The notes: generated by a model from the letters alone, not told the origin. A DNA stretch of 64,000 nucleotides from an uncultured Bacilli bacterium (GCA_934101795.1 CAKORY010000004.1:18468-82467), one strand, 5' to 3'. Counted from the first letter of the stretch, positions 28,589 to 59,099 are shown. Program-made: numbers and translations.

Positions 28589-28619
28589 AAAAAAAACAAC
28601 CAAATTATGATTGTTTTTT
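28589..28619. terminator. AT-rich bidirectional hairpin between the convergent ATPase and pilin genes
   Basis: AAAAAACAA-11 nt-TTGTTTTTT, a weak stem with only one G-C pair. Confidence 0.35.
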
Positions 28620-35302: not shown

Positions 35303-36190
35303 TTATTTTATTAATTTATATTCTCTTACTTTTATCCTTTCATCACTGCAATATTCCATGATAAACTTATTATCTTTTCTACAAAGTATAATACCTATTG
35401 TTTTATCTTGCATTGGATTTCTTAAATTCTTATCTATATAATTCATATAAACTTCTATTTGACCTATATGTTCTTTTTTTAGTTTAGTAACCTTTAACTC
35501 AACCACTACATAACAATTAAATTCAATGTTATATAATAGTAAATCAATATAATTATAGCTATCACCTATCTTTATTTGGTATTCATTTGATATAAAACTA
35601 AATGAATTACCTAGTTCTTTTAAAAATGCTGGTATATCTTCAAGAATCATTTTTTGTAACAATTTTTCTGATATTACTTCATAATTAGTATTATTTTTTA
35701 TTATAATTGGATTTTTGATAATATCTTGAAGATTTAATTTTTCTTCATTAATTAACTTTAGTTTAGTTTGTTCATCTAATCTTTCATATTCTTTATTTTT
35801 AATACGTTTGCGAAGTTCACGCACTGATAAATTTTGCTCTTTACAAATTGTTATATAGTAATTAATTTTGTTTATATTATCAAACCATATTAATTCACAA
35901 TAATGTGAGTATGTCAAAAAGTCCGACATTGTCGGACTTTTTGACAAAACTTCATAAAATCTTCTTGCATATTTTAATCTGGTTACTGTATATCCTTTGC
36001 CAAATTCTTTAGTTAACTTATCTGAATATTCTTTGATAATACCTTCACCATAATGTTTACCTGCTTCACTTAGTAGTTTTCCAACGTTATAATAAGTTGT
36101 TAAGTCACTTTTGTTTTTTGAATAATCCTTTACCTTTTTAGTTATCTCATTATTTAGTATTTCGTTTTTTATCTCATTATAATAATTCAT
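35303..36190 (-). CDS. DUF1016/YhcG-family PD-(D/E)XK nuclease-like protein, tandem copy a
   Basis: 295 aa. N-terminal YYNVGKLLSEAGKHYGEGIIKEYS...KGY..RLKYARRFY matches the DUF1016 N-domain. C-terminal IDLLLYN-x10-VVELK-x3-LKKEHIGQ is the D..E.K nuclease core. Confidence 0.7.
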   Translation of the reverse strand: MNYYNEIKNEILNNEITKKVKDYSKNKSDLTTYYNVGKLLSEAGKHYGEGIIKEYSDKLTKEFGKGYTVTRLKYARRFYEVLSKSPTMSDFLTYSHYCELIWFDNINKINYYITICKEQNLSVRELRKRIKNKEYERLDEQTKLKLINEEKLNLQDIIKNPIIIKNNTNYEVISEKLLQKMILEDIPAFLKELGNSFSFISNEYQIKIGDSYNYIDLLLYNIEFNCYVVVELKVTKLKKEHIGQIEVYMNYIDKNLRNPMQDKTIGIILCRKDNKFIMEYCSDERIKVREYKLIK

Positions 36191-37058
36191 ATTCTCTTAC
36201 CTTTATCCTTTCATCACTACAATATTCCATGATAAACTTATTATCTTTTTTACAAAGAATAATACCTATCGTTTTATCTTGCATTGAATTTCTTAAATTC
36301 TTATCTATATAATTCATATAAACTTCTATTTGACCTATATGTTCTTTTTTTAATTTTGTAACCTTTAACTCTACAACTACAAAACAGTTAAATTCATAAT
36401 TATACAAAAGTAAATCAATATAGTTATAGTTACAACCAATTTTAATTGGATATTCATTTGATATAAAACAAAATGAATTACCTAGTTCTTTTAAAAATGA
36501 TGGTATGTCTTCAAGAATCATTTTTTGTAACACTTTTTCCGATATTACTTCATAATTAGCATTACTTTTTATTATAATTGGATTTTTGATAGTATCTTGA
36601 ACTTCTAATTTTTCGTCTTTAATTAGCTTTAGTTTTGTTTGTTCATCTAATCTTTCATACTCATTATTTTTAATACATTCTCGAAGCTGTCTAACAGAAA
36701 GACTGTTTTGTTCACACATTGTAATATAATATTTTATTTTAATAGTATCATTTAATTTAAACAATTCACAAAAATGACTCCATGACAAAAAGCCAGACAG
36801 TGTTTGGCTTTTTTGAAAATTATAGAACTTTCTCATATTTTTTAAATTACTTAAACCATAACCTTTACCAAATTCTTTTGTTAACTTTTTTGAATATTTC
36901 TTAATAATACCTTCACCATAATGTTTACCTGCTTCACTTAAAAGTTTTCCAACGTTATAATAAGTTGTTAAATCACTTTTGTTTTTTGAATAATCCTTTA
37001 CCTTTTTAGTTATCTCATTATTTAGTATTTCATTTTTTATCTCATTATAATAATTCAT
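36177..37058 (-). CDS. DUF1016/YhcG-family PD-(D/E)XK nuclease-like protein, tandem copy b
   Basis: 293 aa. The first ~55 and last ~170 residues are almost identical to copies a and c, while the middle is about 50-60% identical. The start overlaps the stop of copy c by 14 nt (GAATATGAATTATTATAATGAG). Confidence 0.7.
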   Translation of the reverse strand: MNYYNEIKNEILNNEITKKVKDYSKNKSDLTTYYNVGKLLSEAGKHYGEGIIKKYSKKLTKEFGKGYGLSNLKNMRKFYNFQKSQTLSGFLSWSHFCELFKLNDTIKIKYYITMCEQNSLSVRQLRECIKNNEYERLDEQTKLKLIKDEKLEVQDTIKNPIIIKSNANYEVISEKVLQKMILEDIPSFLKELGNSFCFISNEYPIKIGCNYNYIDLLLYNYEFNCFVVVELKVTKLKKEHIGQIEVYMNYIDKNLRNSMQDKTIGIILCKKDNKFIMEYCSDERIKVREYELL

Positions 37059-37929
37059 ATTCTCTTACCTTTATCCTTTCATCACTGCAATATTCCATAA
37101 TAAATTTATTATCTTTTCTACAAAGAATAATACCTATCGTTTTATCTTGCATTGGTTTTCTTAAATTCTTATCTATATAATTCATATAAACTTCTATTTG
37201 ACCTATATGTTCTTTTTTTAATTTAGTTATCTTTAATTCTATAACTACATAACAATTGAACTCAATGTTATATAATAGTAAATCAATGTAATTATAGTTG
37301 CAACCAACTTTAATTGGATATTCACTACCTACAAAAGAAAATGAATTACCTAACTCTTTCATAAATTCTTCAATATCTTCAAGAATAATTTTCTCCAATG
37401 CTTTCTCAGATATTACTTCATAATTAGCATTACTTTTTATTATAATTGGATTTTTGATAGTATCTTGAAGTTTTAATTTTTCATCTTTTATTAGCTTTAG
37501 TTTTGTTTGTTCATCTAATCTTTCATACTCATTATTTTTAATGCGTTCTCGAAGCTCACGTTTTGACAAATTATTTTTAATAGTAACATTAATATAATAG
37601 GTTATTTTTTCCTTATTATTAAGTGGTAATAATTCTATATAATGACTCCATGTTAATTGGTCAGCCACCGGCTGACTTTTTCCAAATTCATAAAATAATC
37701 TCATATATTTTAAAGTAGTAACTGAATAATTTTTATTTAATTCCTTACTCAACTTTTTTGAATATTCCTTGATAATACCTTCACCATAATGTTTACCTGC
37801 TTCACTTAAAAGTTTTCCAACGTTATAATAAGTTGTTAAGTCACTTTTGTTTTTTGAATAATCCTTTACCTTTTTAGTTATCTCATTATTTAGTATTTCA
37901 GTTTTTATTTCATTATAATAATTCATCAT
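37045..37929 (-). CDS. DUF1016/YhcG-family PD-(D/E)XK nuclease-like protein, tandem copy c
   Basis: 294 aa with the same architecture. It lies 19 nt downstream of comEC. Confidence 0.7.
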   Translation of the reverse strand: MMNYYNEIKTEILNNEITKKVKDYSKNKSDLTTYYNVGKLLSEAGKHYGEGIIKEYSKKLSKELNKNYSVTTLKYMRLFYEFGKSQPVADQLTWSHYIELLPLNNKEKITYYINVTIKNNLSKRELRERIKNNEYERLDEQTKLKLIKDEKLKLQDTIKNPIIIKSNANYEVISEKALEKIILEDIEEFMKELGNSFSFVGSEYPIKVGCNYNYIDLLLYNIEFNCYVVIELKITKLKKEHIGQIEVYMNYIDKNLRKPMQDKTIGIILCRKDNKFIMEYCSDERIKVREYELL

Positions 37930-37948: not shown

Positions 37949-39994
37949 TTAATTTAATGCATATTTTAGTTTTATTTTATTTTTATTTAACTTTATACAG
38001 ATCGTACCTTTTAAATCTGTTCTTAAAACTTTACTATTTTTTAAATTTTCTAATACTTCTTCATGTGGATGCCCATATTTATTGTTTCTTCCTACACTTA
38101 TGACTGAATAGATTGGTTTTAAAGTATTGATAAAATTCTTACTAGTACTATATTTACTTCCATGATGGCCAATTTTTAAAAAATTAATGTTTGTAATTTT
38201 GTATTTTTCTAATAGTTTTTCTTCAACTTTAATTGATGCATCACCCATAAAAAGAAATTTATAACCTAAAAAAGTTACATAATTTACAATACTATTATCA
38301 TTTTCATTGTCATATATGTCATTATTTAAATTTACTATATTAAAATATTTAAAATTGTATTTTTTTGTAATATTAACTTTAGAAGAAATAATTTCTTTTT
38401 CTAAATTATTAATGTTTCCACTATTTAATATGACACTCTTTACATTGATATTTTCTATAATATTTAAACTTTCTTTTGCATGATCTGCATCACCATGTGT
38501 AATAATCATACATGAAAGACTGGTTATACCTTTACTTTTTAAAAATTTAATAGTGTTGTTACTTAAGTGGTAGACTTTCTTTTTCTTTTTCCAATCAGCC
38601 AGTTTATATTCTACTTTGCCACCAGTATCAATCATAATAGTTTCTTTATTATGCGGAGATACAAGAATACTAGAATCACCTTGACCAACATCTAAATAGT
38701 AAACATAATAGTTAAAATCTAAGAAAGGTAATAATTTACAAGTAACAACTATTAATATTAATAAATATAAGTTTTCCTTTTTCTTAGTTAACAAAATTAT
38801 ATAAAATAAAGTAACAAAAATTATTGGCATTTTGGGTATATTTATTAATAAACAAAATTTACCTAAAAATATATTGAAATTGTTAGTAACTGATATAAAA
38901 AAATTTAATATTGGATTTAAACATGGAAAGATAAACGAAATTAAAATAAATGGATATAAGAATAAACTTACCCAAGGAACAAAAATAATATTAATTAGAA
39001 TTGAAAGTAAATTTACTTCAAAGTTTACTAAGGCCGTAACTGGTAAACTAAATAAAAAAGTTATAATACTTAATTTTAGTAGTTTTATAAAATAATTGCC
39101 TTTTATATAATCGGTGTAATAAATAATACCAAAACAAACAACAAAAGAATAAATAAAACCTAGATCATAAATCATAAAAGGATCGATTAATAAAATTAAA
39201 TAAGCACTTAAAATAAGTATATGCATATTTGAATATCTAAGTTTCTTCAGCTTATTTATTTTTTTCAATATATAAAATATTATAGCACGCATTATTGATG
39301 CAGTTATTCCTGTTAAAAATAAATATAATAACAAAAATACTGATGTTGCAAAAAATTCTTTTTTTTCACTTTTTATAATTTTTGAAATTAATAAAACTAA
39401 CATATTAATATGCATTCCTGATATTGCTAATAAATGACTAATACCATTTTTTTGATATGCATCGTAGATATCACTTGATAGTAGTGCCTTATCCCCAAGT
39501 ATGAAAGCTAAATAGTAATCACTATTTTCACTATTGTATATTTTTTTAAATAAGTTATCCTTTAATTTATAGATTAGATTATTACTATCAATTATTTTAT
39601 ATTCAGAAATATTAAAAATATAATATATTTTTTTGTTATATAAATATCTTTTATAATTAAAAGTATTTGGCACTGTATTATTAAGAGGTTCACTAAATGA
39701 ACCTCTTAAATATACTTTGCTTCCAAGATGAAATGTATTAAATATACTATTTTTTTCTTCTTCTGTTTGAACATAATAATTTGCTATTATATTTTCCCTA
39801 GCTTTAATATTTATTGTAAGTTTATTTCCATCAAGTTTCATACTTGTGATTATACCAGTTACATATTCCTCTTTTATGTCATATTTAGAGGAATATTTTA
39901 TTATTTTTGTAAAAAATATTATATAAATAAATATAAATATACCTAATATTACTAAAAGTTTATTAAATTGTAATATTTGCTTTAAATTTTTCAT
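37949..39994 (-). CDS. comEC: DNA internalization competence protein ComEC/Rec2
   Basis: 681 aa polytopic membrane protein with a C-terminal metallo-beta-lactamase domain (HGDADH). Confidence 0.9.
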   Translation of the reverse strand: MKNLKQILQFNKLLVILGIFIFIYIIFFTKIIKYSSKYDIKEEYVTGIITSMKLDGNKLTINIKARENIIANYYVQTEEEKNSIFNTFHLGSKVYLRGSFSEPLNNTVPNTFNYKRYLYNKKIYYIFNISEYKIIDSNNLIYKLKDNLFKKIYNSENSDYYLAFILGDKALLSSDIYDAYQKNGISHLLAISGMHINMLVLLISKIIKSEKKEFFATSVFLLLYLFLTGITASIMRAIIFYILKKINKLKKLRYSNMHILILSAYLILLIDPFMIYDLGFIYSFVVCFGIIYYTDYIKGNYFIKLLKLSIITFLFSLPVTALVNFEVNLLSILINIIFVPWVSLFLYPFILISFIFPCLNPILNFFISVTNNFNIFLGKFCLLINIPKMPIIFVTLFYIILLTKKKENLYLLILIVVTCKLLPFLDFNYYVYYLDVGQGDSSILVSPHNKETIMIDTGGKVEYKLADWKKKKKVYHLSNNTIKFLKSKGITSLSCMIITHGDADHAKESLNIIENINVKSVILNSGNINNLEKEIISSKVNITKKYNFKYFNIVNLNNDIYDNENDNSIVNYVTFLGYKFLFMGDASIKVEEKLLEKYKITNINFLKIGHHGSKYSTSKNFINTLKPIYSVISVGRNNKYGHPHEEVLENLKNSKVLRTDLKGTICIKLNKNKIKLKYALN

Positions 39995-40739
39995 AAGTTG
40001 CCTTACCGATACCTTTAACTTTCATTATTTCATCAATAGATTTAAATTCTCCATTAGCTTCACGATAATCAATGATTTTTTGGGCTTTAGCTTCACCTAT
40101 ACCAGTAAGGGTTGAAAGTTCTTTTATACCTGCAGTATTAATGTTTACTAATTTATTTACTAATGTGTTTTTATTATCATTATTATCATTTGATTTAATT
40201 TCATCAACAACTTTACTTTCGGATTTTTCAATTACACTTTCATTATTTTCTAGAGAACTATCAATATTATATTCTGGTACTATATTTTTTTCATTAGTCT
40301 TATTAGAAAATGAAGTATTTTTATTTGTACTTGAACTTTTATTTACATTATTTGGCTTATCTACACTACTTGCTTTTTTCTTTATATTATCTTTATCATA
40401 AACAACAACAACCATTTCATCCTTAAGTTTCATACTTAAATTAATATTGTCATAATAAGCTTTTTTGCTAAAACCTCCGGCTGCATCAATTAAATCTTTA
40501 AGTCTACTGCCTTCATCAAACTCATAAACTCCAGGTGATATAACTTCTCCTTTTATTTCGGCTTTAATTTTTATACTTTGATTTTTTTCAGAAATAGTTT
40601 CATTAACTAATAAGTTATTATTTTCACTATCAATATACTCATCATCATTAAAATTCATAAATGCATAAATTCCTCCACTAATTATTAATAAAATTATTGT
40701 TATTCCAACTATTATTACTTTTTTATTAAATATTTTCAT
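39963..40739 (-). CDS. comEA: competence protein ComEA (DNA receptor, SLBB + tandem helix-hairpin-helix)
   Basis: N-terminal TM, an SLBB-like IKGEVISPGVYEFDEGSRLKDLIDAAGG, and a C-terminal HhH2 (LVNINTAGIKELSTLTGIGEAKAQKII). RBS AGGAGGA. Confidence 0.85.
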   Translation of the reverse strand: MKIFNKKVIIVGITIILLIISGGIYAFMNFNDDEYIDSENNNLLVNETISEKNQSIKIKAEIKGEVISPGVYEFDEGSRLKDLIDAAGGFSKKAYYDNINLSMKLKDEMVVVVYDKDNIKKKASSVDKPNNVNKSSSTNKNTSFSNKTNEKNIVPEYNIDSSLENNESVIEKSESKVVDEIKSNDNNDNKNTLVNKLVNINTAGIKELSTLTGIGEAKAQKIIDYREANGEFKSIDEIMKVKGIGKATYEKFKANITI

Positions 40740-41960: not shown

Positions 41961-42797
41961 ATGAAACGAAAAATAACTATTTTACTTATTATGACATTTA
42001 TTATACTAATTTTTAATAATTATGATATTGTTTTGAAAAGTACTTTGGATGCTACCACTATATGGCTTAATAGGGTTTTTCCAAATCTTTTTATAATGAT
42101 TATTATTCAAGACTTATTAATTAATTTAGATTTTGCATCATTTTTTAAAAATACTGCTGTTTACATTTTTATTATGTCTCTTTTAAGTGGAACACCTTCT
42201 GGAACATATATTATTTCTAAATTAAAACAGCAAAATATAATTAGTAAAGAATATGCTAATACTTGTTTGATTTTTACATTTTTTGCTAATCCATTATTTT
42301 TATATTCTATATTAAATTCTATATTCTTAAGTAAATTTATAACTATTAGATTAATGTTAATTTTATATTTAACAAATCTTTTCTTGTATTTTATATATAA
42401 AAAAGATTTACCATCAAATGGTAAATCTATAAATGCTAATGAAATTAATTTATCTTCTTCAATTAAAACTAGTATAAATACCACTATTACTGTTCTTGGA
42501 GTTATAACATTTTACCTTATATTATCAAATATTATAATTACTGAATTTAATATTATTTATCCATTTAATATTTTCTTTAAAGGATTTTTAGAAATGACTC
42601 AAGGGCTGGCAGCACTAATTAATGCTAATATAAAGTTCAAAGAAATTATATCAATGATATTTATATCTTTTGGGGGTTTTTCTATTCATACTCAAGTTTC
42701 ATGTATCTTAAATGAGGCTGATTTATCATACAAATACTTTTTTAAAGGTAGGATAATACAAACTATTTTAGTGGTTTTGCTAACAATTATAACCTAG
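41961..42797 (+). CDS. YlbJ-like sporulation integral membrane protein (nucleoside-recognition/Gate domain-like)
   Basis: 278 aa, 7-8 TM. Divergent from the ylbL-like gene, as in the Bacillus ylbJ-ylbL neighbourhood. Assigned by context plus a weak motif (GFLEMTQGLAAL). Confidence 0.4.
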   Translation: MKRKITILLIMTFIILIFNNYDIVLKSTLDATTIWLNRVFPNLFIMIIIQDLLINLDFASFFKNTAVYIFIMSLLSGTPSGTYIISKLKQQNIISKEYANTCLIFTFFANPLFLYSILNSIFLSKFITIRLMLILYLTNLFLYFIYKKDLPSNGKSINANEINLSSSIKTSINTTITVLGVITFYLILSNIIITEFNIIYPFNIFFKGFLEMTQGLAALINANIKFKEIISMIFISFGGFSIHTQVSCILNEADLSYKYFFKGRIIQTILVVLLTIIT

Positions 42798-43355
42798 ACA
42801 AGTAATATTTTTGTTAAAATCTTGTGATTTACCAATATAACTTATTAAAATATCATCTAATAAATTATTATTTCCAAATTTATTTTTATCATTTGTTGTG
42901 TGCACTTCAATATCTATTTGTAATGTATATATTCTTTTATTTACTTCATTTATTTTATCATCACTATAGCTTACATTTGCTTTTTTTGTATATATTTTTC
43001 CTCCATCTATTGTCCAATTTCGTGTGCTATTACTTGAACTTTTATAAGTAAATTTGTTTTCAGTTGCATCTATAATACTAGTTTTATTATTTTTAAAAGT
43101 AAATTTTATTTTTAAATTATTACTCGTAGAACCTGTACTATCAATATCAGTTATAACATTGTTATTTAAATCATTTTCTATCATTCTTAATATTTCTGCT
43201 CTGTTAATTTGATTGTCTTTGGCATATACATTATTTGTTTCTGTATTATTTAAATCTACTAAAAGTCTCATTAGAAAGATTAAAATAATAGATATTAATG
43301 CAATACTTATTACAAGTTCTAAAAGTGTACTTCCTCTTTTATTCATTTTTTTCAT
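42780..43355 (-). CDS. prepilin-type pseudopilin / minor pilin
   Basis: MKKMNKRGSTLLELVISIALISIILIF: a G|STLLE class III signal. 191 aa. Confidence 0.65.
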   Translation of the reverse strand: MKKMNKRGSTLLELVISIALISIILIFLMRLLVDLNNTETNNVYAKDNQINRAEILRMIENDLNNNVITDIDSTGSTSNNLKIKFTFKNNKTSIIDATENKFTYKSSSNSTRNWTIDGGKIYTKKANVSYSDDKINEVNKRIYTLQIDIEVHTTNDKNKFGNNNLLDDILISYIGKSQDFNKNITCLGYNC

Positions 43356-43358
43356 AAA

Positions 43359-44201
43359 TTACCCCACTATATATGGATCAGCATTTGTGCCAGTCCCACT
43401 TAAATATCTAACACTTCCCTTTAGGTAAAATGTTGGTTTAATATTTTTATTATTGCTTGCAATATCAGTATCTATAGTACCATCATTTTTTAGATAATAA
43501 CTATATACTAAATTACTATTTGTTCTTGTTATAAACCACATATTACTTGTAAAAAGCCAGTTATTTTGATTTTTTACTGTTTCATCATATATGCTTTCAT
43601 TACCTGCATAAATATAATCACTTATATATGGTAAACCTATCTTTTGAATAGTGGTAACACCATTATTTTTTTTATCTCCGATTTCATAATTAATTATTTC
43701 TTTACCAGGTTTAGTTTTAAAAGAATTATCTAAACCACCAACATACCATGTGGTAGTTTCTATTAATTCAATATTATCTCCTAGGTTATTTATAAATTCA
43801 GTATTTAAATAAGAACTTACTGATGATTCTTCATAGTTATTTGAACTTTTGCTATCAAAGGCTACATTTATAATACTATCATTTTTTATTAGTTTTACTT
43901 TACCATCAATTACTCCGATTATTCGATATGTTTCATTATTAAACTTAATATAATTATTGGGGTTACTTCCATTAAACCTATATGTATTATCTATTTTTAA
44001 CATATTTATTTCTTCATATCTATTAATAAGATAATTAGCAAAATTAGTATCACTTATCTCATTTTTTATTGTTTTCTTCATATTATTTAAAAGATTTCTA
44101 CTTGTAACCATATTAACTATTATAAACATCATTAGAGTTAAGAATACTAGGAAAAATGAATAAATTACTGTTACGGATATAAAACCTTTGCTATTTTTCA
44201 T
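43359..44201 (-). CDS. pilin-like protein with the C-terminal domain shared with the two large surface proteins
   Basis: 280 aa. N-terminal KGFISVTVIYSFFLVFLTLMMFII (G|F, no Glu5). C-terminal YRIIGV.DGKVKLIK, TTWYVGG, ISDYIYA, ...KPTFYLKGSVRYLSGTGTNADPYIVG. RBS AAGGAGG. Confidence 0.55.
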   Translation of the reverse strand: MKNSKGFISVTVIYSFFLVFLTLMMFIIVNMVTSRNLLNNMKKTIKNEISDTNFANYLINRYEEINMLKIDNTYRFNGSNPNNYIKFNNETYRIIGVIDGKVKLIKNDSIINVAFDSKSSNNYEESSVSSYLNTEFINNLGDNIELIETTTWYVGGLDNSFKTKPGKEIINYEIGDKKNNGVTTIQKIGLPYISDYIYAGNESIYDETVKNQNNWLFTSNMWFITRTNSNLVYSYYLKNDGTIDTDIASNNKNIKPTFYLKGSVRYLSGTGTNADPYIVG

Positions 44202-44273
44202 AATTGCCTCCTTATTTTATTATTATTGGATCAGATTTAGTACCATTTCCAGATGCATAAGTTATGGAAGAGA

Positions 44274-44906
44274 TTAAATTGAAGCTTGTGTTTTTCCATA
44301 CATACCGACTGAAGCATAATATGTTTGACATCTTTTATCCATTCCTGGAGTGCACTTAATAATATCTCTTTCTTTATTTTTATTTTCTTCCGTTGTATCT
44401 TCAAGTTTATTTGCATATTCAATAACTAAATAGTAATCATACTTTGTATCACTTAAAGAATTAACATATTTTTGCATATTATAACTTAAATTATTTATTG
44501 ATGATTTACAATATTTTTCAGTGCCTTCATAACAGTTATCAAACATTTCACTTTTTACCAATATCATTTGATTTATTTTGAAACTTTTAACTATTTCTTC
44601 TAGAGAGTATATTCTGTTATCAGCTTTTTCTACTTCGTTAAATAATGCATCAAAACCTGTTCCTAAAGTAACTATATATGTATCATTAAAATAATTTTTC
44701 TTTACGTTTTCTATGTCACTATATTCTTCTAGAAATTTTCTAACATAATTTGTATAATAAATATAAGCTGGATCATCATAATATAATCTTACTTTTTCAT
44801 CACTTATTATGGCATTGTAGGTACTATAAAGATATAAAAGTGATGCAGATAGTATTACTACAGTTATAATTGTTTCCACAAAAGCAAACCCTTTTTTACT
44901 TCTCAT
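44274..44906 (-). CDS. prepilin-type pilin, apparently 3'-truncated by a frameshift in an A5 tract (full-length frame would end at ~44213)
   Basis: MRSKKGFAFVETIITVVILS: a G|FAFVE class III signal. The -1 reading frame after GGAAAAACA encodes NTSFNLISSITYASGNGTKSDPIIIK*. This matches the family's C-terminal motif and ends right at the next gene's RBS. Confidence 0.6.
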   Translation of the reverse strand: MRSKKGFAFVETIITVVILSASLLYLYSTYNAIISDEKVRLYYDDPAYIYYTNYVRKFLEEYSDIENVKKNYFNDTYIVTLGTGFDALFNEVEKADNRIYSLEEIVKSFKINQMILVKSEMFDNCYEGTEKYCKSSINNLSYNMQKYVNSLSDTKYDYYLVIEYANKLEDTTEENKNKERDIIKCTPGMDKRCQTYYASVGMYGKTQASI

Positions 44907-44988
44907 TTTATCACTTACCTTACTATATATAGTTTATCAAAACCTAAACAAAAAATCAACCTATATAGATTGATTTTTGTGTTAGCCA

Positions 44989-46659
44989 CTAGTTTATACG
45001 AATTGGTGAATTTTGAGTTCCATCGCCTTCGACATAAGTTACGGAAGGTAAAAGATTGAAGACTGGCCGAACAGCATACGTATCAGAGTCAACATAGCAG
45101 TCGTTGTCGGTGATGTTGCCGGTGTAATTCACAAAATTCCCATGGTCATCCCAGTCCGCATTACGGGTAATTGTCCATTCTACTAGCCCCATATACATCC
45201 AATTGACACTTGTGGCAGCTCTATAATCTTTTGATGCATCATCATTATAACTTTCTAATGTCCACTTATCTTGTGGTGTTGCATACATATAGTCACTTAC
45301 ATACATTAAGCCTATTTTTGCACTATATTCTGTTTCTGAAGAGTATTCACCAGATTCTGGTTTTACCACTTCATTTTGGTATGCATTTTTGGCTATTCCT
45401 CCAGCCAAATACTCCAAGTTCACCCCTCCAACCTTCCATGTTGTTTCTGCTATTTTAGCTGCCCAGTCATCTCCTATTTTTGTTATGAAGTTAGTATTTA
45501 AATTTGTTTTATTTAAATTTGATAAACTCCATATATTTTGACCAGACTTATTCCAATTATATGCTGCTATATTAGCTAAATTGTTTCCTTTATAATTGGT
45601 ATTATCCCAATCATATGAAGGATCAGAAGTAACAGTTGTATATTTATCTCCATAATCTCCATCGGTACCTAATAATGCACTTGTTGCATAATCTGATTTG
45701 ATTAGTTTTACTTTACCTCCAAATACTCCGATTATTCTATATAGATTATCAGCTGGGCATGGCGTTGCATTACTTCCAAAACATACATAATTATTTACTT
45801 GATCACTTGCTCCAGCAAATCTGTACGAATTATCTTCAGCATCTAAAACAGTTCCAACAGGATATGTTTTTATTTCATGTTCATGTGTTTCTTGATTAAA
45901 AAATTCAAATTTAAATTCAGAAGCACTTTTGATTGTACCATTGTGATGATAGATGCCATTTTCTCCTTGAGTACCTGTATATAATGATTTTACATAATCC
46001 GTTAATAGGTTTATTTTTTCTTTTTGTATCATAACCTTTGCACTTAATCCACTTGATGCATTAGCTGTTTGATCTCCTTCATAGTTTACAAATGTAAGCT
46101 TTAGTGTATATTGTTCTTCTTTTGCATCTGTTGTTGCTGTTATTGTTTTCTTATTTGCTATAGTTATTAAACCATTTGTTGTTGTAACATCAAAACCTGA
46201 TATACTTTTGTTTTCTCTATCTTGAACTACTTTATGAGTTAGTCCTGATATTTCTGTTACTTCATTTCCATCTGGTCCTGTAACTGTTAATATAAGTTCT
46301 GGTTTATCTTCACCTAATGTATATTTGAATGTATTGTTTTCAATATTAAAATATACATAATAGTTATCTGTTGCTTCATTTGTCTTATTATTTGCAACTA
46401 ATGTTGCTTTAGCAAATGTTTCTCCAGATAAACTTCCCTTTTCTTGACCAAATGATGATTGGTCTGCATATAAACTTATAGCACTACCTGTTGTAAATGT
46501 AAGCATATCTGTTGTATATGTTGTAACCTTAACCTCCGTAGAACTTGATGCTCCCCCTTGTGCTTTAAAATATGCAAATGTTGCACCAACTACTAAAGTA
46601 ATTAATGTAACAACTGCAACTATACTAAGAATTAATGCTTGTTTTTTATTTTTTTCCAT
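44989..46659 (-). CDS. membrane-anchored surface protein, paralog of 15012-16604
   Basis: About 556 aa starting at MEKNKKQALILSIVAVVTL (ATG 46659). The track's longer ORF begins upstream by translating the poly-T tract as FFFFFF. C-terminal ...AVRPVFNLLPSVTYVEGDGTQNSPIRIN. Confidence 0.65.
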   Translation of the reverse strand: MEKNKKQALILSIVAVVTLITLVVGATFAYFKAQGGASSSTEVKVTTYTTDMLTFTTGSAISLYADQSSFGQEKGSLSGETFAKATLVANNKTNEATDNYYVYFNIENNTFKYTLGEDKPELILTVTGPDGNEVTEISGLTHKVVQDRENKSISGFDVTTTNGLITIANKKTITATTDAKEEQYTLKLTFVNYEGDQTANASSGLSAKVMIQKEKINLLTDYVKSLYTGTQGENGIYHHNGTIKSASEFKFEFFNQETHEHEIKTYPVGTVLDAEDNSYRFAGASDQVNNYVCFGSNATPCPADNLYRIIGVFGGKVKLIKSDYATSALLGTDGDYGDKYTTVTSDPSYDWDNTNYKGNNLANIAAYNWNKSGQNIWSLSNLNKTNLNTNFITKIGDDWAAKIAETTWKVGGVNLEYLAGGIAKNAYQNEVVKPESGEYSSETEYSAKIGLMYVSDYMYATPQDKWTLESYNDDASKDYRAATSVNWMYMGLVEWTITRNADWDDHGNFVNYTGNITDNDCYVDSDTYAVRPVFNLLPSVTYVEGDGTQNSPIRIN

Positions 46660-46728
46660 ACATACCACGTCCTTTTTAACTAACAAACTCACGCATAATA
46701 TTCTTACGTTACTATATAAGTATACCTG

Positions 46729-46747
46729 AAAAAAAAAAAAAAAAAAA
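46729..46747. repeat. homopolymeric A19 (T19 on the minus strand) ~70 nt upstream of the surface-protein start codon
   Basis: Counted directly. It is the longest homopolymer in the window by far. Confidence 0.9.
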
Positions 46748-46831: not shown

Positions 46832-47011
46832 CATGAAGTGTAATGGTCCTCGTAATGGTTTAACTATTATAATTTTATTTATACTCGGAGTATTAATTTT
46901 TTATCAAGCACTAATTACTTTAATACTCCCCTTTAGATTTAATATTTTTATTTTACTTTTAGAAATATCTTTATTTTTCTTCTTCATCATGCGTATTATA
47001 TGGCCTTATTA
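46832..47011 (+). CDS. possible small hydrophobic protein (59 aa), below the ORF-track length threshold
   Basis: ATG preceded by RBS AGGTGA at 6 nt. MKCNGPRNGLTIIILFILGVLIFYQALITLILPF... with two predicted TM helices. Overlaps the 3' end of the convergent gene by ~40 nt. Confidence 0.3.
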
Positions 47012-47858
47012 ATTCTTCAGTTTTAAAAACATAATCAATTAAATTACTTACATTTTGACATCTTTCAAATTCATTATTACTCTTTTTACTTTCTGGTGGC
47101 AGAGTTATTAAAATAAATAATAATTTCTTTTCATAATCAAGTAAAGGAAACTTATACATATATCTTGATAATATTTCACTAAATTCTATATTATTCCATT
47201 CTTTTTTATAAAGTTTAGCTATATCTATAACAGGTGTATCTATTATATAATTATCCCAGCTTATAAGTTTATTGTCTCTTAAATGATTAAGTTCTAAATT
47301 ATTATGTAAAGTTGCTACCCTGATTTTATTTTCATTTGTAACCAAAGAGTACCAATCATCTAATTCTTCTAAAGCATACTTTAGTGATGCATCAAGTTTA
47401 TAATAATTTCTTAAAAACAAATAATTTGATGGTGACTCATAATCTTCATTAAAACCAATTTCATATAAAGTATTATAATAACTTGTTAAATAATTAATAT
47501 TACTTTTAATATTTTCATATATAGTTTTAAATTTATCATTACTTACTTCCTTAAAATAGCTAGTTTTATTATGTAAACTAGCTATTAATTCTATTAAATC
47601 TTCGCATTTTTGTTCTTTAGGTAGTTTTGTATCTTCAACATACTCAAAGACATTAACTTCATCTCTGGATGCATCAATAATCTTAGGAAAGTTTATAAAT
47701 CCACGATTAGTTAGATAATTATATAATTCATTTATATCTTTATTCTTAGGTTTTATTATAAAATCTCCACTGGTAGTTTCTAAAATAGTGGTTTTACCTT
47801 TAATTGTATATCTATATGGCTTATAAATAGCTTTTAGCATTTCTAAACTTTTATTCAT
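46971..47858 (-). CDS. CotS/YsxE-like kinase-fold spore coat-associated protein (catalytic motif degenerate)
   Basis: 295 aa with an APH/CotS-like layout. The catalytic loop reads LHNNLELNHL instead of HGDLHxxN. Lies immediately downstream of a SpoVID-like gene, as with Bacillus spoVID-ysxE. Confidence 0.45.
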   Translation of the reverse strand: MNKSLEMLKAIYKPYRYTIKGKTTILETTSGDFIIKPKNKDINELYNYLTNRGFINFPKIIDASRDEVNVFEYVEDTKLPKEQKCEDLIELIASLHNKTSYFKEVSNDKFKTIYENIKSNINYLTSYYNTLYEIGFNEDYESPSNYLFLRNYYKLDASLKYALEELDDWYSLVTNENKIRVATLHNNLELNHLRDNKLISWDNYIIDTPVIDIAKLYKKEWNNIEFSEILSRYMYKFPLLDYEKKLLFILITLPPESKKSNNEFERCQNVSNLIDYVFKTEELIRPYNTHDEEEK

Positions 47859-48498
47859 TTATTTCAGGTATTATAATTTTATCCCCAAGAGTTAGTGTAC
47901 TTAAATCATTATATTCACCAAGTATTGCATCTGAGGTATTATATTTTAAACATATACTTTCTATTGTATCAGTTTCTTTCATTTCATGGATATGATAAGT
48001 TACATATACATCATCACTATCATTAATATTATTTAAAATAGTATCTTTAGTTTCTTCAGTTATATCTCTTTCTTCTTTTACTTCTTCTTTAGGTTCTTCT
48101 ACTTCTCTATCTATTTCATCAAGTAAATTGTCGAGTGTTGGTTCTTCTACTTGCTTAAATAAAGGTTCTTCTTCCTTTACTTCATCGGCATTAATACTAT
48201 ATTCAATATTTACTCTGAGTGTATCATTATCAATAACTTCATAAGTAAAATCTTGTACTTCAAAATTAACACTATTTGTATCAATTTTATTTGTCATATT
48301 AACTGAAAATGGTAAAACATATTCAAAATGTTCTTTATTAACACTTACTTCATGTGTTTTATATTCCCCGGATATTGTAAAATTACCTAAAACCTCTGTT
48401 TCATTTGCTGTATAATCATGTTCAAGTGAAACACTTAAAATTTCTGCAATATTACTTTTAAATTTAACATCTTTTGTAAATGGTATAATACAATTCAT
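47851..48498 (-). CDS. SpoVID-like protein (SpoVID N-domain + acidic linker + C-terminal LysM)
   Basis: C-terminal LysM (YVTYHIHEMKETDTIESICLKYNTSDAILGEYNDLSTLTLGDKIIIP). The N-terminal pattern resembles SpoVID (..AEILSVSLEHDY...GNFTISGEY). Confidence 0.55.
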   Translation of the reverse strand: MNCIIPFTKDVKFKSNIAEILSVSLEHDYTANETEVLGNFTISGEYKTHEVSVNKEHFEYVLPFSVNMTNKIDTNSVNFEVQDFTYEVIDNDTLRVNIEYSINADEVKEEEPLFKQVEEPTLDNLLDEIDREVEEPKEEVKEERDITEETKDTILNNINDSDDVYVTYHIHEMKETDTIESICLKYNTSDAILGEYNDLSTLTLGDKIIIPEINE

Positions 48499-51295: not shown

Positions 51296-52276
51296 CTATT
51301 TTTCTCCCTCTTCAAGCATTGTAGTTATAAAAAGTCCATAACCAGACATGGGATTATCAATTATAACATGAGTTACAGCTCCGATAATTTTATTATTTTG
51401 AATAATTGGAGAACCGCTCATACCTTGAACAACTCCACCAGTTTTATCAAGTAATTCTTTGTCAGTTATTTTAAATGATATATTTTTTATTTTAGCAGTT
51501 TCATCTATTTTATTTATTTCTATATCATAATATTTTACTTCTTCTTTATTTAAAACTGTTGCAATCTTTGCACTACCTATTTTAACTTCTTCTTTAGTTG
51601 CTACTTCAAGCATTTCTTTATTTGGTATTGTAGATTCATATAATCCATATATTCCTACCCCAGTATTTTTCATGATACTTCCATATTTGGTATTATAATA
51701 AAATTTGGCATTTTTACTTCCAGCATAACCAACTCTACTTTTATCAATGCCAGTTATATAGTTTCTAAATATTGTACCGGTTTTGATTTCTACGATATTA
51801 CTCGTATTACTTTCTATTATTTCATGACCAAGAGCACCAAATATCTTTGTTTCTGGGTCAATATATGATAGTGTACCAGTACCTGTTATGCTATCTTTAA
51901 CATATAAACCAGTTTTATAAATATCACCATCTTTTATAAGTTCTAGCTTACTTGTCTTTTCTTTACCATTTCTTTTTAAAGTAATAGTTACTTCCTCTTT
52001 ATCTACATTTTGTTCAATTATTTTTGTGAGTTCACCTATTGTATTAACATATGTATCATTTATTTTAATAATATAATCACCAGATTTTATCGTGGGATTT
52101 CCTTTGTTATATTTTCCATTTATTTGGTAAAAACCTATTACCATCACTCCATCACTATTTATTTCAATACCAAGTGTTTCACCACCAGGAATTATATAGT
52201 TTGAATATGCAAATACATTTATTGGTAATAATAACCAACTTATTAATATTATTTTTAATTTTTTCATGTATACCAC
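51296..52276 (-). CDS. spoIVB: stage IV sporulation protein B signalling peptidase (S55)
   Basis: Signal anchor, PDZ domain (GDYIIKIND), and protease region with GTLSYIDPETKIFGALGH and GMSGSPII. Confidence 0.8.
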   Translation of the reverse strand: MVYMKKLKIILISWLLLPINVFAYSNYIIPGGETLGIEINSDGVMVIGFYQINGKYNKGNPTIKSGDYIIKINDTYVNTIGELTKIIEQNVDKEEVTITLKRNGKEKTSKLELIKDGDIYKTGLYVKDSITGTGTLSYIDPETKIFGALGHEIIESNTSNIVEIKTGTIFRNYITGIDKSRVGYAGSKNAKFYYNTKYGSIMKNTGVGIYGLYESTIPNKEMLEVATKEEVKIGSAKIATVLNKEEVKYYDIEINKIDETAKIKNISFKITDKELLDKTGGVVQGMSGSPIIQNNKIIGAVTHVIIDNPMSGYGLFITTMLEEGEK

Positions 52277-53330: not shown

Positions 53331-54113
53331 TTATAATTTACTATTTATTGTCTTTTCTAATATTCTTTTTACATCTCTTTCATTAAATGGTTTTAAAAGT
53401 ATATCAATAATTGGATATTTAAAAGCTTTATCTATAGATTCTTTATCATCTACCCCAGTAATAATAGAAATAGGTATGCTTCTAAATAAGTCTTTATTTT
53501 TATAATAATCTAAAACTTCAAAGCCATTTACATTTGGCATATTTAAATCAAGAAGTACAGCTTTAATATTTTGTCTTTTTGTATCATCTTCTAAAATATC
53601 TATTGCTTCTTTACCATCAGTTGCACTTATAACTTCAAATGAATCATCTAATATTTTTAAAATAAAGTTTCTTATTAAATTAGAATCATCCACTACAAGA
53701 ATAGCTTTATCATGGGAAGGTTTCGGAGCCTTATACAAATCATCATCTACGATACCTACTCCCATATATTTTTTTACTAAATTAACTACTCTATTTGCTT
53801 CTTTCATTAATTCATTAAAATGTTCTGTAACATAGTACATGTCATTGGCTTTACTTTTAAGTTCATGATCATATGCAAGTTCACCTAAGACTTCAAAGCC
53901 AAAATATCTGGCATCACTTTTAAGCGAATGGACAAGAATAGCATAATTTGCCATATCTCCGATTTCTTTACAAGCTTTAATTTTCTCTAGCTTTCCTGGT
54001 ACTTCTTGTAAAAAAGTTTCAAGGGTTGCATCATATGTTTCCATATCCCCGAATAACTCTAAAGCTTTTTTTACATTTGCCCCATTTTCAATTAAAATAT
54101 TTACATCTTTCAC
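53331..54113 (-). CDS. Hpt-receiver fusion protein (phosphotransfer protein without output domain)
   Basis: N-terminal Hpt (HSLKSDARYFGF). C-terminal REC (VVDDS...LLDLNMPNVNGFEVL...K). Confidence 0.75.
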   Translation of the reverse strand: MKDVNILIENGANVKKALELFGDMETYDATLETFLQEVPGKLEKIKACKEIGDMANYAILVHSLKSDARYFGFEVLGELAYDHELKSKANDMYYVTEHFNELMKEANRVVNLVKKYMGVGIVDDDLYKAPKPSHDKAILVVDDSNLIRNFILKILDDSFEVISATDGKEAIDILEDDTKRQNIKAVLLDLNMPNVNGFEVLDYYKNKDLFRSIPISIITGVDDKESIDKAFKYPIIDILLKPFNERDVKRILEKTINSKL

Positions 54114-54119
54114 TATTTA

Positions 54120-55952
54120 TCACTCCTTGTTTAAATATTCATTTATTACTCTATTTAATTCATCTTTACTTATTGGTTTGGCTAAGTAATCATTAAATCC
54201 ATCTGCTAAGTATTTTTCCCTCATACCTGTTAAAGCGTTTGCTGTAAGGGCAACAGTTGGTATATTAAAATCTGGTATTTGCTCTTTTATTTTATGAAGT
54301 GTTTCTACTCCACTTAACTTTGGCATCATATCATCCATTAATATTAAATCATATTTTTTGCCATTTTTCAAGTTATCTATGCAAATAAAGCCACTTTCAA
54401 CACATTCTGTAGTAATACCATATGTACCCAGTAATCTTTCTGCAACTTTTAAATTAATTTTATTATCATCTACTACTAAAACTAATTTATTATTTACTTT
54501 TATGTCATCATTTTTAACAACTGGAGCATCAACTTTTATAGTTGGATTTTTAACAATTCTTTGGTCTATTGAAACTGTAAATTTAGAACCTTTTCCATAG
54601 ACACTTTGAACTACTATTTTTCCGTGCATTAAATCTACTAACTTTTTAGTTATAGCAAGTCCTAATCCAGTTCCTTCAATAGTTACGTTATCTTCTAAAT
54701 CTAATCTTTCAAATTTATTAAATAACTTATTAATATTTTCTTGCTTAATACCAATACCGGTATCTTCAACTGATATTATTAATCGACATACATCATTTTT
54801 AACAACTGAATTTATACTAAATGTTATGCTTCCTTCTTTGGTATATTTAACAGCATTAGTTAATATATTTACACAAATTTGTTTAAGTCTTGATGCATCA
54901 CCATATAAAACACGAGGAATAGTATCATCTATTTTTGTAATAAGTTCAATAGGTTTATCTCCAAGTCTACCTTTTGTTAATGCAATAAGTTCTGTTGTAA
55001 CTTTATTAAAGTCATATTCAGTATTAACTATTTCTAATTTACCAGCTTCAATCTTCGATATATCCAAAATACCATTTACTATTTCAAGTAGATTATCACT
55101 AGCCATAACAATATCATTTACTTCATCTTTTGCACTATCTGGTAAGTTTTTATCTTCCAAAAGCATATTACTAAAGCCCACGATTGCATTAAGTGGGGTC
55201 CTTATTTCATGTGACATACTTGATAAAAATTCTGTTTTAGCGGTATTTGCTTTTTCTGCAGCAATCTTTGCTTCATTTAACTGGGCAATCATTTTAACAT
55301 CTGGGTTATCAATTGTAAAATACATAATATAGTTAACAAAGCAAACCACTATTGAAACCCAAATTAAATATGGATTTATATTAACTACTACTAAAACTCC
55401 AATTAATAATAAAAGCATTACTAATACAAAGAAATATCTTTTATCAACTTTTTTAAGATTAAATAAAACTATTAATAAAGTCATAATGAGATAAACTCCA
55501 CACAATATTTCAGCCATTAAAACTGCAGAACCATCGGCTGTATATGCGTTTCCAGATTTTATTACATCAACTTTACCAAATAACATAAATATAAAAATTA
55601 TTAAATCTGTAACTAAAAATGGAATAGAAAATTTCCTATAATGTGATTTAAAAACTGGAAGGGTTATTATTGCAATGTAAGAAAATATACAATTACAAAT
55701 TAATATCAGCATTACAAAATCTATTTTATTTAAAATTGTAATTATAAAATCTAAGTAACCTGGAGTATAAAAGAAGGCAATAGATTGAAGTATTGTTACA
55801 ATTAAACTATCTACAAAACTACACACAATCATGAATGAATACATTTTATTTTCTAATAAATCTACTCTTTCTTTAGAGAAATAAACATAACACATTAAAC
55901 CAGAAAAAAATAGTGAACATACTGGCAATAATATACCTTCCATACTTACCAC
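54120..55952 (-). CDS. hybrid sensor histidine kinase (multi-TM sensor - HisKA - HATPase - REC)
   Basis: About 6 TM N-terminal region, H-box [13 protein letters not shown] boxes, and a C-terminal receiver ([10 protein letters not shown]...[14 protein letters not shown]). Confidence 0.85.
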   Translation of the reverse strand: MVSMEGILLPVCSLFFSGLMCYVYFSKERVDLLENKMYSFMIVCSFVDSLIVTILQSIAFFYTPGYLDFIITILNKIDFVMLILICNCIFSYIAIITLPVFKSHYRKFSIPFLVTDLIIFIFMLFGKVDVIKSGNAYTADGSAVLMAEILCGVYLIMTLLIVLFNLKKVDKRYFFVLVMLLLLIGVLVVVNINPYLIWVSIVVCFVNYIMYFTIDNPDVKMIAQLNEAKIAAEKANTAKTEFLSSMSHEIRTPLNAIVGFSNMLLEDKNLPDSAKDEVNDIVMASDNLLEIVNGILDISKIEAGKLEIVNTEYDFNKVTTELIALTKGRLGDKPIELITKIDDTIPRVLYGDASRLKQICVNILTNAVKYTKEGSITFSINSVVKNDVCRLIISVEDTGIGIKQENINKLFNKFERLDLEDNVTIEGTGLGLAITKKLVDLMHGKIVVQSVYGKGSKFTVSIDQRIVKNPTIKVDAPVVKNDDIKVNNKLVLVVDDNKINLKVAERLLGTYGITTECVESGFICIDNLKNGKKYDLILMDDMMPKLSGVETLHKIKEQIPDFNIPTVALTANALTGMREKYLADGFNDYLAKPISKDELNRVINEYLNKE

Positions 55953-57260: not shown

Positions 57261-59099
57261 TTATTCTTTGTTTAAATATTCATTTATTACTCTATTTAAT
57301 TCATCTTTACTTATTGGTTTAGCTAAATAATCATTAAATCCATCTGCTAAGTATTTTTCCCTCATACCTGTTAAAGCATTTGCTGTAAGGGCTATAGTTG
57401 GTATATTAAAATCAGGTATTTCTTCTTTTATTTTATGAAGAGTTTCTACCCCGCTCATTCTAGGCATCATATCATCCATTAATATTAAATCATATTTTTT
57501 ACCATTTTTGAGGTTATCTATGCAAATAAAGCCACTTTCAACACATTCTGTAGTAATACCATAAGTTCCCAGTAATCTTTCTGCAACCTTTAAATTGATT
57601 TTATTATCATCAACTACTAAAACTAATTTATTATTTACTTTAATTTCATCACTTTCAATTACTGGCTCACTAGTTGTTATTGTTGGATTTTTAACAATCA
57701 TTTGATCAATTGAAACTGTAAACTTAGAACCTTTTCCATATACACTTTGAACTACGATAGTTCCATGCATTAAGTCTACTAACTTTTTAGTAATTGCTAA
57801 ACCTAGTCCTGTTCCTTCAATGGTAATATTTTCTTCTAAATCTAGTCTTTCAAATTTATTAAATAACTTATTTATATTTTCTTGTTTAATACCAATTCCT
57901 GTATCTTCAACTGCTATTATAAGTCTACAAACATCACCTTTTATAACTGAATTTACACTAAATGTTATACTTCCCTTTTTAGTATATTTTACAGCATTAG
58001 TTAAAATATTTACACATATTTGTTTAAGTCTTGTTGCATCACCATATAACACTTTAGGTATTACTTCATCTACTTTAGTAATTAATTCTATTGGTTTATC
58101 TGCAATTCTTCCTTTTGTAAGAGATATAAGTTCAGTTATTACTTTATTAAAATCATATTCACCATCAACAATTTCTAATTTACCAGCTTCAATTTTTGAT
58201 ATATCCAGTATACCATTAACTATTTCTAGTAAATTTTCTGATGCCATAACAATATCTTTTACTTCATCTTTTGCACTATCTGGTAAAGTTTTATCATCTA
58301 AAAGCATATTGCTAAAACCTACGATTGCATTAAGTGGTGTTCTTATTTCATGAGACATATTTGATAAAAACTCTGTTTTAGCAGTATTAGCTTTTTCTGC
58401 TTGTGTCTTCGCAGCATTTAATTCACTAATTAATTTAACATCAGGATTTTCAATAGTAAAGTACATTATCATTACAACTAAAGATAAGAGATAATTAATT
58501 AAAAAAGCGGATGGGAATAAACTTTGAACTAAAAAATTAATAAGCATTAGTAATACAAAAATATATAAAGGTCTTAATTTCTTTCCTTGAATATTTTTTC
58601 TATATTTAATTGCTATTGTTATAGAATAAAGAATAAGAATAAAACAAATAATATAAGTTAGTAATACAGGAAAACCTTTGGGTATAATAACATTTTCTAA
58701 AACATCAAAATTAATTGGTAAAATTAAAATAAATGGTACAGTAAAGATTAAAAATAAAGCAAATGTATAAAAAGTATTCATCATTTTACTTTTATAATTT
58801 TCGCTATTTGGTAAACTTATACATTTTATATAATAAGAAAATAATAAAAGCCATAACACAAAATAAACAAAAACAAATTTAGATGCTATAGAATACATTA
58901 AACCATTAATATCGTAACCATACTTATATAATAGACATGTTGTTATATCCATAGATAATCCAAAGATAGTTAAAAGTAATAAATACTTATAAATTCTTGT
59001 TTCTATATTATTTACTCTTTCTTTAGATAAAAAATTATATGTAAAAAGAATTATTATAATTAATGCACTTATTGAGAAATATAATCCCATCACTACCAC
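57261..59099 (-). CDS. hybrid sensor histidine kinase, paralog of 54120-55952 with a different sensor domain
   Basis: 612 aa. The C-terminal ~400 aa (from [10 protein letters not shown]) is ~90% identical to the other kinase and the DNA is ~90% identical over ~1.2 kb. The N-terminal multi-TM domain is unrelated in sequence. Confidence 0.85.

Follow-up and report, generated by a model that had tools for sequence, protein, structure and literature searches.

Why should one and the same C-terminal domain be carried both by a large surface protein and by a protein encoded among prepilin genes? This question is raised by a minus-strand gene cluster in a 64,000-nt stretch of DNA from an uncultured Bacilli bacterium (GCA_934101795.1 CAKORY010000004.1:18468-82467; G+C content 26.8%), hereafter the window, to whose positions all coordinates refer unless another locus is named. 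An earlier note on this DNA had described four open reading frames (ORFs) there, coding for a 556-aa protein and for three pilin-like proteins of 210, 280 and 191 aa (here pil210, pil280 and pil191), as well as a stand-alone 530-aa paralog of the 556-aa protein, and all of them are present (Table 1). We assign a probability of roughly 70% to the following explanation taken as a whole: the three pilin genes form a minor-pilin cassette, pil280 caps the filament tip and displays a lectin-like module there, this module belongs to the family DUF6273, and its present distribution at the locus reflects a history of fusion and deletion.

The conserved unit comprises only pil210, pil280 and pil191 and is found in a low-GC lineage of uncultured gut Bacilli. 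Orthologs of pil280 are common in gut metagenomes (45–100% identical, 271–312 aa), and their neighbourhood is constant in the ortholog contigs as well as in 16 species-level genomes: a spoVID/ysxE-like pair, coding for a LysM protein and a kinase of the CotS family, is followed by pil210-pil280-pil191, a convergent ylbJ, a gene for a YlbL/SepM-like protease, and comEA, comEC and holA. The records in this synteny set are labelled uncultured Tenericutes, Bacilli or Erysipelotrichaceae, Clostridium sp. CAG:609, or Firmicutes bacterium CAG:460. Family scans of the window confirmed ComEA, ComEC, YlbJ, the SepM-like protease and the YsxE-like protein. The pilin gene cluster proposed earlier was thus borne out, except for the 556-aa gene, which is not among its conserved members; most relatives have no 556-like gene beside the cassette.

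All three cassette proteins begin with a short basic leader running to Gly, followed by about 21 hydrophobic residues (pil210, MRSKKG/FAFVETIITVVIL; pil280, MKNSKG/FISVTVIYSFFLVFL; pil191, MKKMNKRG/STLLELVISIAL; slashes mark the predicted cleavage site). The two genes flanking pil280 encode Glu at position +5 (Glu5) and prepilin cleavage/methylation motifs, with a Pfam N_methyl score of 23.9 bits for pil191, above the cutoff of 21.2 bits, and of 17.2 bits for pil210, below it; pil191 additionally gave weak N-terminal matches to ComGE, GspI and ComGF. In 20 pil280 orthologs, the N-terminus M-K-x-x-K-G/F-I-S-(V or I)-T-V-I-Y-S-F-F-L-V-F-L is nearly invariant, G6 and F7 are strictly so, and Thr takes the place of Glu at +5. 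No match of pil280 to the hidden Markov models (HMMs) N_methyl and TIGR02532 was obtained; this and the Thr at +5 would be expected of a cap subunit but do not count as positive evidence for one. A leader of this type, starting at residue 1 and followed by one to four copies of the shared module, occurs in about 39 of the best 150 representatives, and a 739-aa version of pil280 is encoded in a distant Bacilli genome.

With regard to the shared domain itself, alignment of the 556-aa protein gave 49% identity with the 530-aa protein and 30% with pil280, and every motif quoted in the earlier note was found. A profile-profile comparison of the 280-aa and 556-aa families aligned 244 columns with a probability of 99.9% and an E-value of 2.6e-35, which together with the alignments upholds the claim of a C-terminal domain common to the three proteins. 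The match begins at residue 44 of pil280 and at residue 210 of the 556-aa protein. Because this homology outside the pilin family starts at residue 44, the pilin part of pil280 is confined to the leader and helix α1 (residues 1–43), and the module extends from residue 44 to residue 280.

The domain had earlier been left without a named family; the Pfam match and the fold search place it in DUF6273 (PF19789), a module with a C-type-lectin-like fold. In the Pfam scans, DUF6273 matched pil280 with 23.2 bits (E 6.7e-5) and the 530-aa protein with 16.4 bits, and it was found in 6 of the 20 pil280 orthologs (best E 4.7e-8). The scan of the 556-aa protein returned no DUF6273 match; some of its homologs carry a precomputed PF19789 assignment. 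Because the Pfam score is marginal, the module at this locus appears to represent a divergent subfamily, with an extra β-rich part at its N-terminus (YRIIGV..KVKLIK). The AlphaFold2 model of pil280 (mean predicted local distance difference test score, pLDDT, 86; predicted template modelling score 0.77) consists of a 41-residue helix (residues 10–50) and a mixed α/β globule. When this model was compared with the PDB by Foldseek, the top match was the IgA peptidase of Thomasclavelia ramosa (9qa6; E 2.3e-7, probability 1.00), the N-terminal domain of which is annotated as DUF6273 (PMC12402451), followed by many weak matches to C-type lectin domains. In BFVD, a collection of predicted viral structures, 17 matches had E ≤ 1e-3 (best 1e-8), most of them DUF6273 proteins of gut phages and one labelled as a receptor-binding protein, so that pil280 shares the fold of DUF6273 domains in both structure sets. 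A resemblance of DUF6273 to C-type lectins has been described, and the domain is a target of diversity-generating retroelements (DGRs) in phage receptor-binding proteins (PMC10743442). Profiles built for pil210, pil280, pil191 and the 556 family retrieved nothing meaningful in PDB sequence searches, PHROGs contributed a single uninformative match, and in the papers located that mention DUF6273 we found no connection of the domain with pilins.

A profile search of 1.84 billion representatives returned 7669 matches with E ≤ 1e-3, 338 of them with E ≤ 1e-30, in proteins of up to 4905 residues and with up to 13 matched stretches per protein, and the module also occurs in phage receptor-binding-like proteins and in an IgA peptidase. 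This wide spread argues that we are dealing with a general, very widespread surface-binding module which is not specific to pili. Accordingly, pil280 combines a pilin moiety with an extra domain of broader distribution, as modular pilins do. Its orthologs join leader and module in one protein and the first prepilin, pil210, is also fused to the module in sister lineages, which bears out the view that the module is carried by pilins. The designation of pil280 as pilin-like was apt as regards this pilin-borne module and the conserved cassette; it needs amending in that the protein possesses an actual prepilin-like leader, KG/FISVT, albeit without Glu5.

In type II secretion systems, type IVa pili and Com pili, the sole minor pilin without Glu5 (K, ComGG) caps the tip complex (PMC10790768), and modular pilins with grafted binding modules, thought to be exposed at the tip, are known from Streptococcus sanguinis (vWA in PilB, a lectin module in PilC; PMC8179133, PMC9934059). 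By analogy, pil280 is best read as a modular cap pilin of the K/ComGG type that would display its DUF6273 module at the tip. The three minor pilins would prime assembly and occupy the tip of the filament, with pil280 topmost, offering its lectin-like module to a ligand that would probably be a glycan or a protein, borne by host mucus or by other cells, although DNA is another possibility. For this system we infer cleavage by a prepilin peptidase, the tip location, the ligand and a role in competence, whereas homology, fold, synteny, fusion and scar are shown directly by the data. The earlier suggestion of a pilus-tip adhesin is reasonable for the 280-aa protein.

Several observations weigh against this reading. 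NCBIfam contains no ComGG or GspK model that matches pil280; the gene lacking Glu5 is the middle one, not the last as in the H-I-J-K and GD-GG sets; the cassette holds three minor pilins, compared with four in the canonical sets; and the DUF6273 score of pil280 lies slightly below the gathering cutoff of 23.5 bits. Among the window ORFs scanned, no gene for a prepilin peptidase (peptidase A24) or a platform protein was found, and the assembly ATPase is closer to GspE/PilB than to ComGA, which makes an adhesive pilus without a role in competence possible. Moreover, 556-like genes or genes with the N-module are found no more than a few kb away from the cassette in many loci, namely the window, L013, L015–L018, L022 and L026, in addition to a remnant in L029, which could denote a functional link; these genes may be more than the product of an insertion hotspot.

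According to the earlier note, the C-terminal ending of the large proteins is also encoded in another frame at the 3' end of the 210-aa gene, and this proved correct: the −1 frame at 44212–44283 encodes FNLISSITYASGNGTKSDPIIIK followed by a stop codon, and in blastn this stretch is 75% identical over 68 nt to the 3' end of the 530-aa gene (E 1e-6). In most genomes, the pil210 ortholog is 187–202 aa long and ends in YYASLGI, with pil280 starting within about 10 nt downstream. By contrast, it runs in frame into a complete module in L014 (509 aa), in L019 (460 aa) and in a sister species (L029–L031, 509 aa) whose pil280 is 79% identical to that of the window; the fusion proteins of this species thus join a full pilin core to the module, as expected for modular pilins. 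The sequence across the fusion junction is ...YYASVGMYGK-SQEKKQKLSEYIISQYNGVQG..., with ...DPIRIK at the C-terminus, and two proteins 93–94% identical to the pil210 of the window (P0242 and P0243) likewise read through the junction into the module. In the window, pil210 retains ...YYASVGMYGK; homology to the L029 fusion ends near 44285 and restarts near 44244, at a point about 0.85 kb further on in the sister species. Since this homology gap coincides exactly with the frame break, the motif in the other frame represents a deletion scar rather than coding sequence. Sequencing error was rejected as the cause of the frame break, given that the identical 210-aa allele recurs in independent samples.

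A reciprocal state is found in the sister species, where the 556-like gene upstream (L029 5932-6378; L028 871-1317) carries an internal deletion by which its promoter region and start (GGTATGTATGGGAAAAAATG) are joined directly to the final 148 codons of the DUF6273 module. Furthermore, the 16-mer GGTATGTATGGAAAAA is present both at the start of the 556-aa gene (46651–46666, minus strand) and at the pil210/module junction (44291–44306), and L029 also has both copies. On account of this shared 16-mer, the comparison points to an origin of the fusion from a 556-like gene located just downstream of pil210, which lost its N-module and joined the pilin ORF, its start region included. Between lineages, the fused modules are 37–53% identical and the pilin cores 62–72%, and the fusion in L019 has a different linker, so that the fused module would seem either to evolve much faster than the core or to have been captured more than once. 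In the proposed sequence of events, a 556-like gene beside pil210 would have donated its module to give a pilin-DUF6273 fusion; the window strain would then have lost the module again through a deletion of about 0.85 kb, which was out of frame and left the scar; and in the sister species, the fusion would have stayed intact, with the internal deletion affecting the upstream 556-like gene instead. Also at this site, L019 has about 600 nt (approximately 5100–5560) between its CotS-like and fused pilin genes that resemble the decayed 3' end of another coding sequence. Upstream of pil210, there seems to be a hotspot at which surface-protein genes are gained and decay.

The 556-aa protein consists of an N-terminal hydrophobic signal/anchor with the sequence GATFAYF, a conserved β-rich N-module of about 215 aa and a variable DUF6273 module. 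Together with the 530-aa protein, it belongs to a very large, fast-diverging mosaic family of signal-anchored surface proteins, with homologs of the 556-aa protein forming at least 8000 clusters at 90% identity. Close homologs are 86–95% identical over residues 1–215 and 56–68% identical in the module, variability being highest at residues 501–520, right before AVRPVFNL. For the 530-aa protein, identity is 20% in the N-part and 58–59% in the module; an exact-sequence look-up of the 530-aa paralog returned no record. The GATFAYF sequence presumably recalls SipW/TasA-type signals, which we take as a lead only; the model of the SipW-dependent signal (TIGR04088, cutoff 19 bits) gave no match on the N-terminus of the 556-aa protein and 14.9 bits (E 0.023), below the cutoff, on that of the L026 homolog (...GATYAYFQ...).

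An operon headed by the large surface protein, as proposed in the earlier note, is doubtful and found no support. The stop codon of the 556-aa gene is followed by an AT-rich hairpin and a T-run, likely an intrinsic terminator that separates this gene from the pilin cassette, and L014 and L019, both of which lack a 556-like gene at this place, have conserved the roughly 80 nt that precede pil210. The consensus terminator scan called none; the scanner demands at least three G-C pairs, and the hairpin is AT-rich. Hence, the 556-aa gene has an upstream region of its own and is a lineage-specific neighbour of the cassette, not one of its conserved members. About 70 nt upstream of its start lies a T19 run (46729–46747, minus strand), where the sister species has TTTTATGTTTGCTCTTTT; no run of nine or more T was found in seven related loci checked (L012, L014, L019 and L028–L031), and the T19 run could be a slippage-prone promoter tract involved in phase variation or an assembly artefact. 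In L002 and L018, tandem genes for 534- and 707-aa proteins are located between ylbL and comEA (L002 11466-13070 and 13160-15283) and carry the 556 N-module (49% identity, residues 6–214) joined to other C-terminal domains without a DUF6273 match; the N-module is therefore itself a reusable carrier.

As to the alternatives for individual components, pil280 might not be a pilin but a lectin-like protein with an N-terminal membrane anchor that happens to be encoded among pilin genes. The absence of Glu5, of an N_methyl or ComGG HMM match and of a classical pilin β-sheet head, along with module homology from residue 44 onwards, would fit such a protein. However, the basic-Gly-Phe leader and its roughly 22 hydrophobic residues are conserved far beyond what an ordinary signal anchor requires, in every genome the gene is closely flanked by prepilin genes on both sides, the same leader recurs on the one- to four-module proteins described above, and a missing Glu5 is the rule for cap subunits (PMC10790768), so that we consider a non-pilin pil280 unlikely. 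Less credit is due to the proposal that the terminal motif (VRPxF.L..S.xY.SG.GT..DPI) serves as a recognition tag for pilus assembly or processing, used by the large proteins as pilus-associated adhesins, even though the motif ends all four sequences and several genomes have 556-like genes in the vicinity of the cassette. In the pil280 model, the motif forms strands 257–260, 266–268 and 277–279 of the domain, with pLDDT values of 90–96, and in relatives with two modules per pilin leader, G.GT..DP(Y or I).(I or V) lies mid-protein at the end of the first module, as in P0304 (...SGSGTSNDPYIVN-ISGTAG...) and P0307 (...EGTGTYSSPYRISGQNG...). It also occurs in thousands of proteins of unrelated architecture and is absent from pil191 and from the 165-aa pilin encoded elsewhere in the window. 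The motif is therefore the closing β-hairpin and boundary of the module, and not a sorting or recognition tag. Least credible of all is that the ending in the other frame is put to use, a −1 frameshift or transcriptional slippage at GGAAAAAC (A5 run, 44291–44295) adding it to the prepilin. One extra A, or a −1 slip on AAA, would indeed join the frames exactly, and the allele is stable across samples; yet the gain would amount to some 25 residues of a module of about 300, the 93–94% identical relatives read into the full module, the sister species has an intact 509-aa fusion, and DNA homology is interrupted for about 0.85 kb at precisely this point, just as a deletion would leave it. On the grounds of this gap and of the relatives' read-through, the deletion scar is favoured and programmed frameshifting at the A5 run is rejected.

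Other alternatives concern the relationship between the cassette and its DUF6273 neighbours. Proteins of the 556 type could be non-pilin tip partners comparable to PilY1, the N-module docking on the minor-pilin complex and the DUF6273 module binding the ligand. The combination of a highly conserved N-module with a divergent C-module, the recurrence of such genes at most a few kb away from the cassette in at least 8 of 16 loci, and the fact that modular pilins and PilY1 have effector modules in common (PMC8179133) speak for this analogy. Against it stand homologs in unrelated contexts (of two that were examined, one lies between mraY and ftsW and the other after a liaF-like and a DUF4097 gene), the lack of an adjacent gene in most genomes and the hairpin and T-run between the 556-aa gene and the cassette; the AlphaFold2 model of the 556-aa protein, built with 20 close homologs, has a pLDDT of 39 and provides no structural information on the N-module. 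On balance, a PilY1-like role appears improbable. Even less probable is that partial DUF6273 copies near the cassette act as silent donors that vary the pilin-borne module in the manner of pilE/pilS. It would be in keeping with the module ends being recombination joints and the fusion joint being the boundary between N- and C-module, with the 148-aa 3' fragment upstream in the sister species, and with fused modules that are less alike than the pilin cores. Nevertheless, there is one fragment per genome, which retains a promoter and start codon and looks like a decaying gene, the window contains no repeated cassettes, and neither a reverse transcriptase nor a template repeat, hence no sign of a DGR, is present. 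Apart from the paralogs and the scar, the window showed no extra repeat of the 3' regions, the scanned window ORFs and the related loci yielded no reverse transcriptase, and divergence extends across the whole module; DGR-driven hypervariability was rejected for these reasons. The broader notion that DUF6273 surface proteins and the pilus are functionally coupled, either by docking of the 556 N-module on the tip or by neighbouring full or partial DUF6273 genes swapping the ligand-binding module of the tip pilins, is doubtful. If docking were true, the N-module would be a monoderm analogue of PilY1; if donors were at work, pilus tip specificity would be re-tooled through module exchange with the surface-protein repertoire, and the reciprocal states of window and sister species would be snapshots of this exchange.

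Other components of a type IV filament are encoded in the window, and the adjacency of comEA and comEC alone suggests a DNA-uptake role of the filament. A 165-aa prepilin, our candidate for the major pilin, matches ComGC weakly (E 2e-4; 21 bits, cutoff 75), and in three genomes (L020, L021 and L025) its gene immediately precedes the spoVID/ysxE pair and the cassette. A canonical comG operon, comprising comGA to comGG with a ComGA-type ATPase and a ComGC-type major pilin, is not what was found. A competence-type DNA-uptake pilus is nevertheless the most likely identity of this filament. We also observed that the ATPase gene on the plus strand converges on the gene of the 165-aa prepilin, the pilus genes being scattered and not gathered in one operon.

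Table 1. Features of the window, with positions, strand and supporting observations.
Feature	Position	Strand	Remarks
556-aa ORF	44989-46659	minus	Start at 46659, not at the upstream ATG, backed by homolog N-termini
Hairpin (12 bp, AT-rich) with T-run	44951-44978	minus	Right after the 556 stop; centroid structure is the hairpin alone, -9.9 kcal/mol
pil210, 210-aa prepilin, MRSKKG/FAFVE	44274-44906	minus	N_methyl match; no C-terminal DUF6273 module here
Deletion scar, last ~24 codons and stop of lost DUF6273 module	44212-44285	minus	Out of frame; overlaps the last 4 codons of pil210
pil280, putative 280-aa modular minor pilin, leader MKNSKG/FISVT	43359-44201	minus	Leader, AlphaFold2, Foldseek, Pfam
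pil191, 191-aa minor pilin, KRG/STLLE	42780-43355	minus	Pfam N_methyl; syntenic in all relatives
530-aa stand-alone paralog, other N-module and same DUF6273 module	15012-16604	minus	
comEA	39963-40739	minus	DNA uptake; syntenic with cassette
comEC	37949-39994	minus	TIGR00361 252 bits, above cutoff; syntenic with cassette
165-aa prepilin, MNKNG/FTLVE, candidate major pilin	28619-29116	minus	TIGR02532 29.3 bits, above cutoff; adjoins ruvA
GspE/PilB-type type IV filament assembly ATPase	27290-28573	plus	GspE 474, PilB 457, ComGA 266 bits; all below equivalog cutoffs

A number of further observations were made in the window. Between the CotS-like and the 556-aa genes, a 59-aa hydrophobic small ORF (MKCNGPRNGLTIIILFILGVLIF...) preceded by an AGGTGA ribosome-binding site is found on the plus strand (46833–47012); its DNA is about 95% conserved even where the flanking proteins are just 60–90% identical, and it probably encodes a conserved small membrane protein or else constitutes another constrained element. 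The spoVID/ysxE-like pair upstream of the cluster (46971–48498, minus strand) encodes a 215-aa protein, with what appears by eye to be a LysM-like end, and a CotS/YsxE-family protein. A SpoIVB gene is present at 51296–52276, and this gene, the spoVID/ysxE-like pair and YlbJ together indicate a spore-forming lineage, despite the label 'Tenericutes' on several related records. Right downstream of comEC, there are three tandem YhcG/DUF1016 paralogs (PD-(D/E)XK nuclease-like; 295, 293 and 294 aa; 35303–37929, minus strand), a gene that is single-copy in the sister species. Finally, two paralogous hybrid histidine kinases with HisKA, HATPase_c and receiver domains (610 and 612 aa; 54120–55952 and 57261–59099, minus strand) flank an acyltransferase gene, and together with an Hpt-receiver protein encoded at 53331–54113 they look like a phosphorelay.

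The cassette provides the widespread DUF6273 domain with a structural context, namely the predicted tip of a type IV filament, and offers a candidate adhesin or receptor for abundant uncultured gut Bacilli. The locus would also be a natural example of the origin and decay of a modular pilin, in which a neighbouring surface-protein gene supplied the module, start region included, and closely related lineages lost it again.

The general principle of modular, tip-located minor pilins is already established, and no new type of machinery is seen here. The closest known systems are PilB (vWA) and PilC (ConA-like lectin) of S. sanguinis, in which a binding module is likewise grafted on a pilin encoded among minor pilins, and which, like pil280, are predicted to be located at the tip and to bind host ligands (PMC8179133, PMC9934059); pil280 differs from them in that its module is DUF6273, its pilin part is limited to α1, Glu5 is missing and there is no sequence similarity. 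With GspK, PilK/PilX and ComGG, it shares the position of sole subunit without Glu5, a size larger than that of its partners and a gene encoded with other minor pilins, whereas the lack of an HMM match, the middle position, the set of three and a lectin-like module in place of the GspK α-domain set it apart from GspK and ComGG. The module belongs to the same family and has the same fold as the N-domain of the T. ramosa IgA peptidase, the phage 'tentaclin' and other DGR targets, and the receptor-binding-like proteins of gut phages, but here it is borne on a pilin leader or on a signal-anchored N-module, with no retroelement nearby. The 556-aa protein, in turn, resembles the PilY1/PilC tip adhesins in being large, in having an ordinary signal peptide, in being encoded beside minor pilin genes and in combining a conserved carrier with a variable effector part; in contrast to them, it has neither an IPR008707-type β-propeller nor a conserved linkage to the cassette, and its family is mostly encoded elsewhere in genomes.

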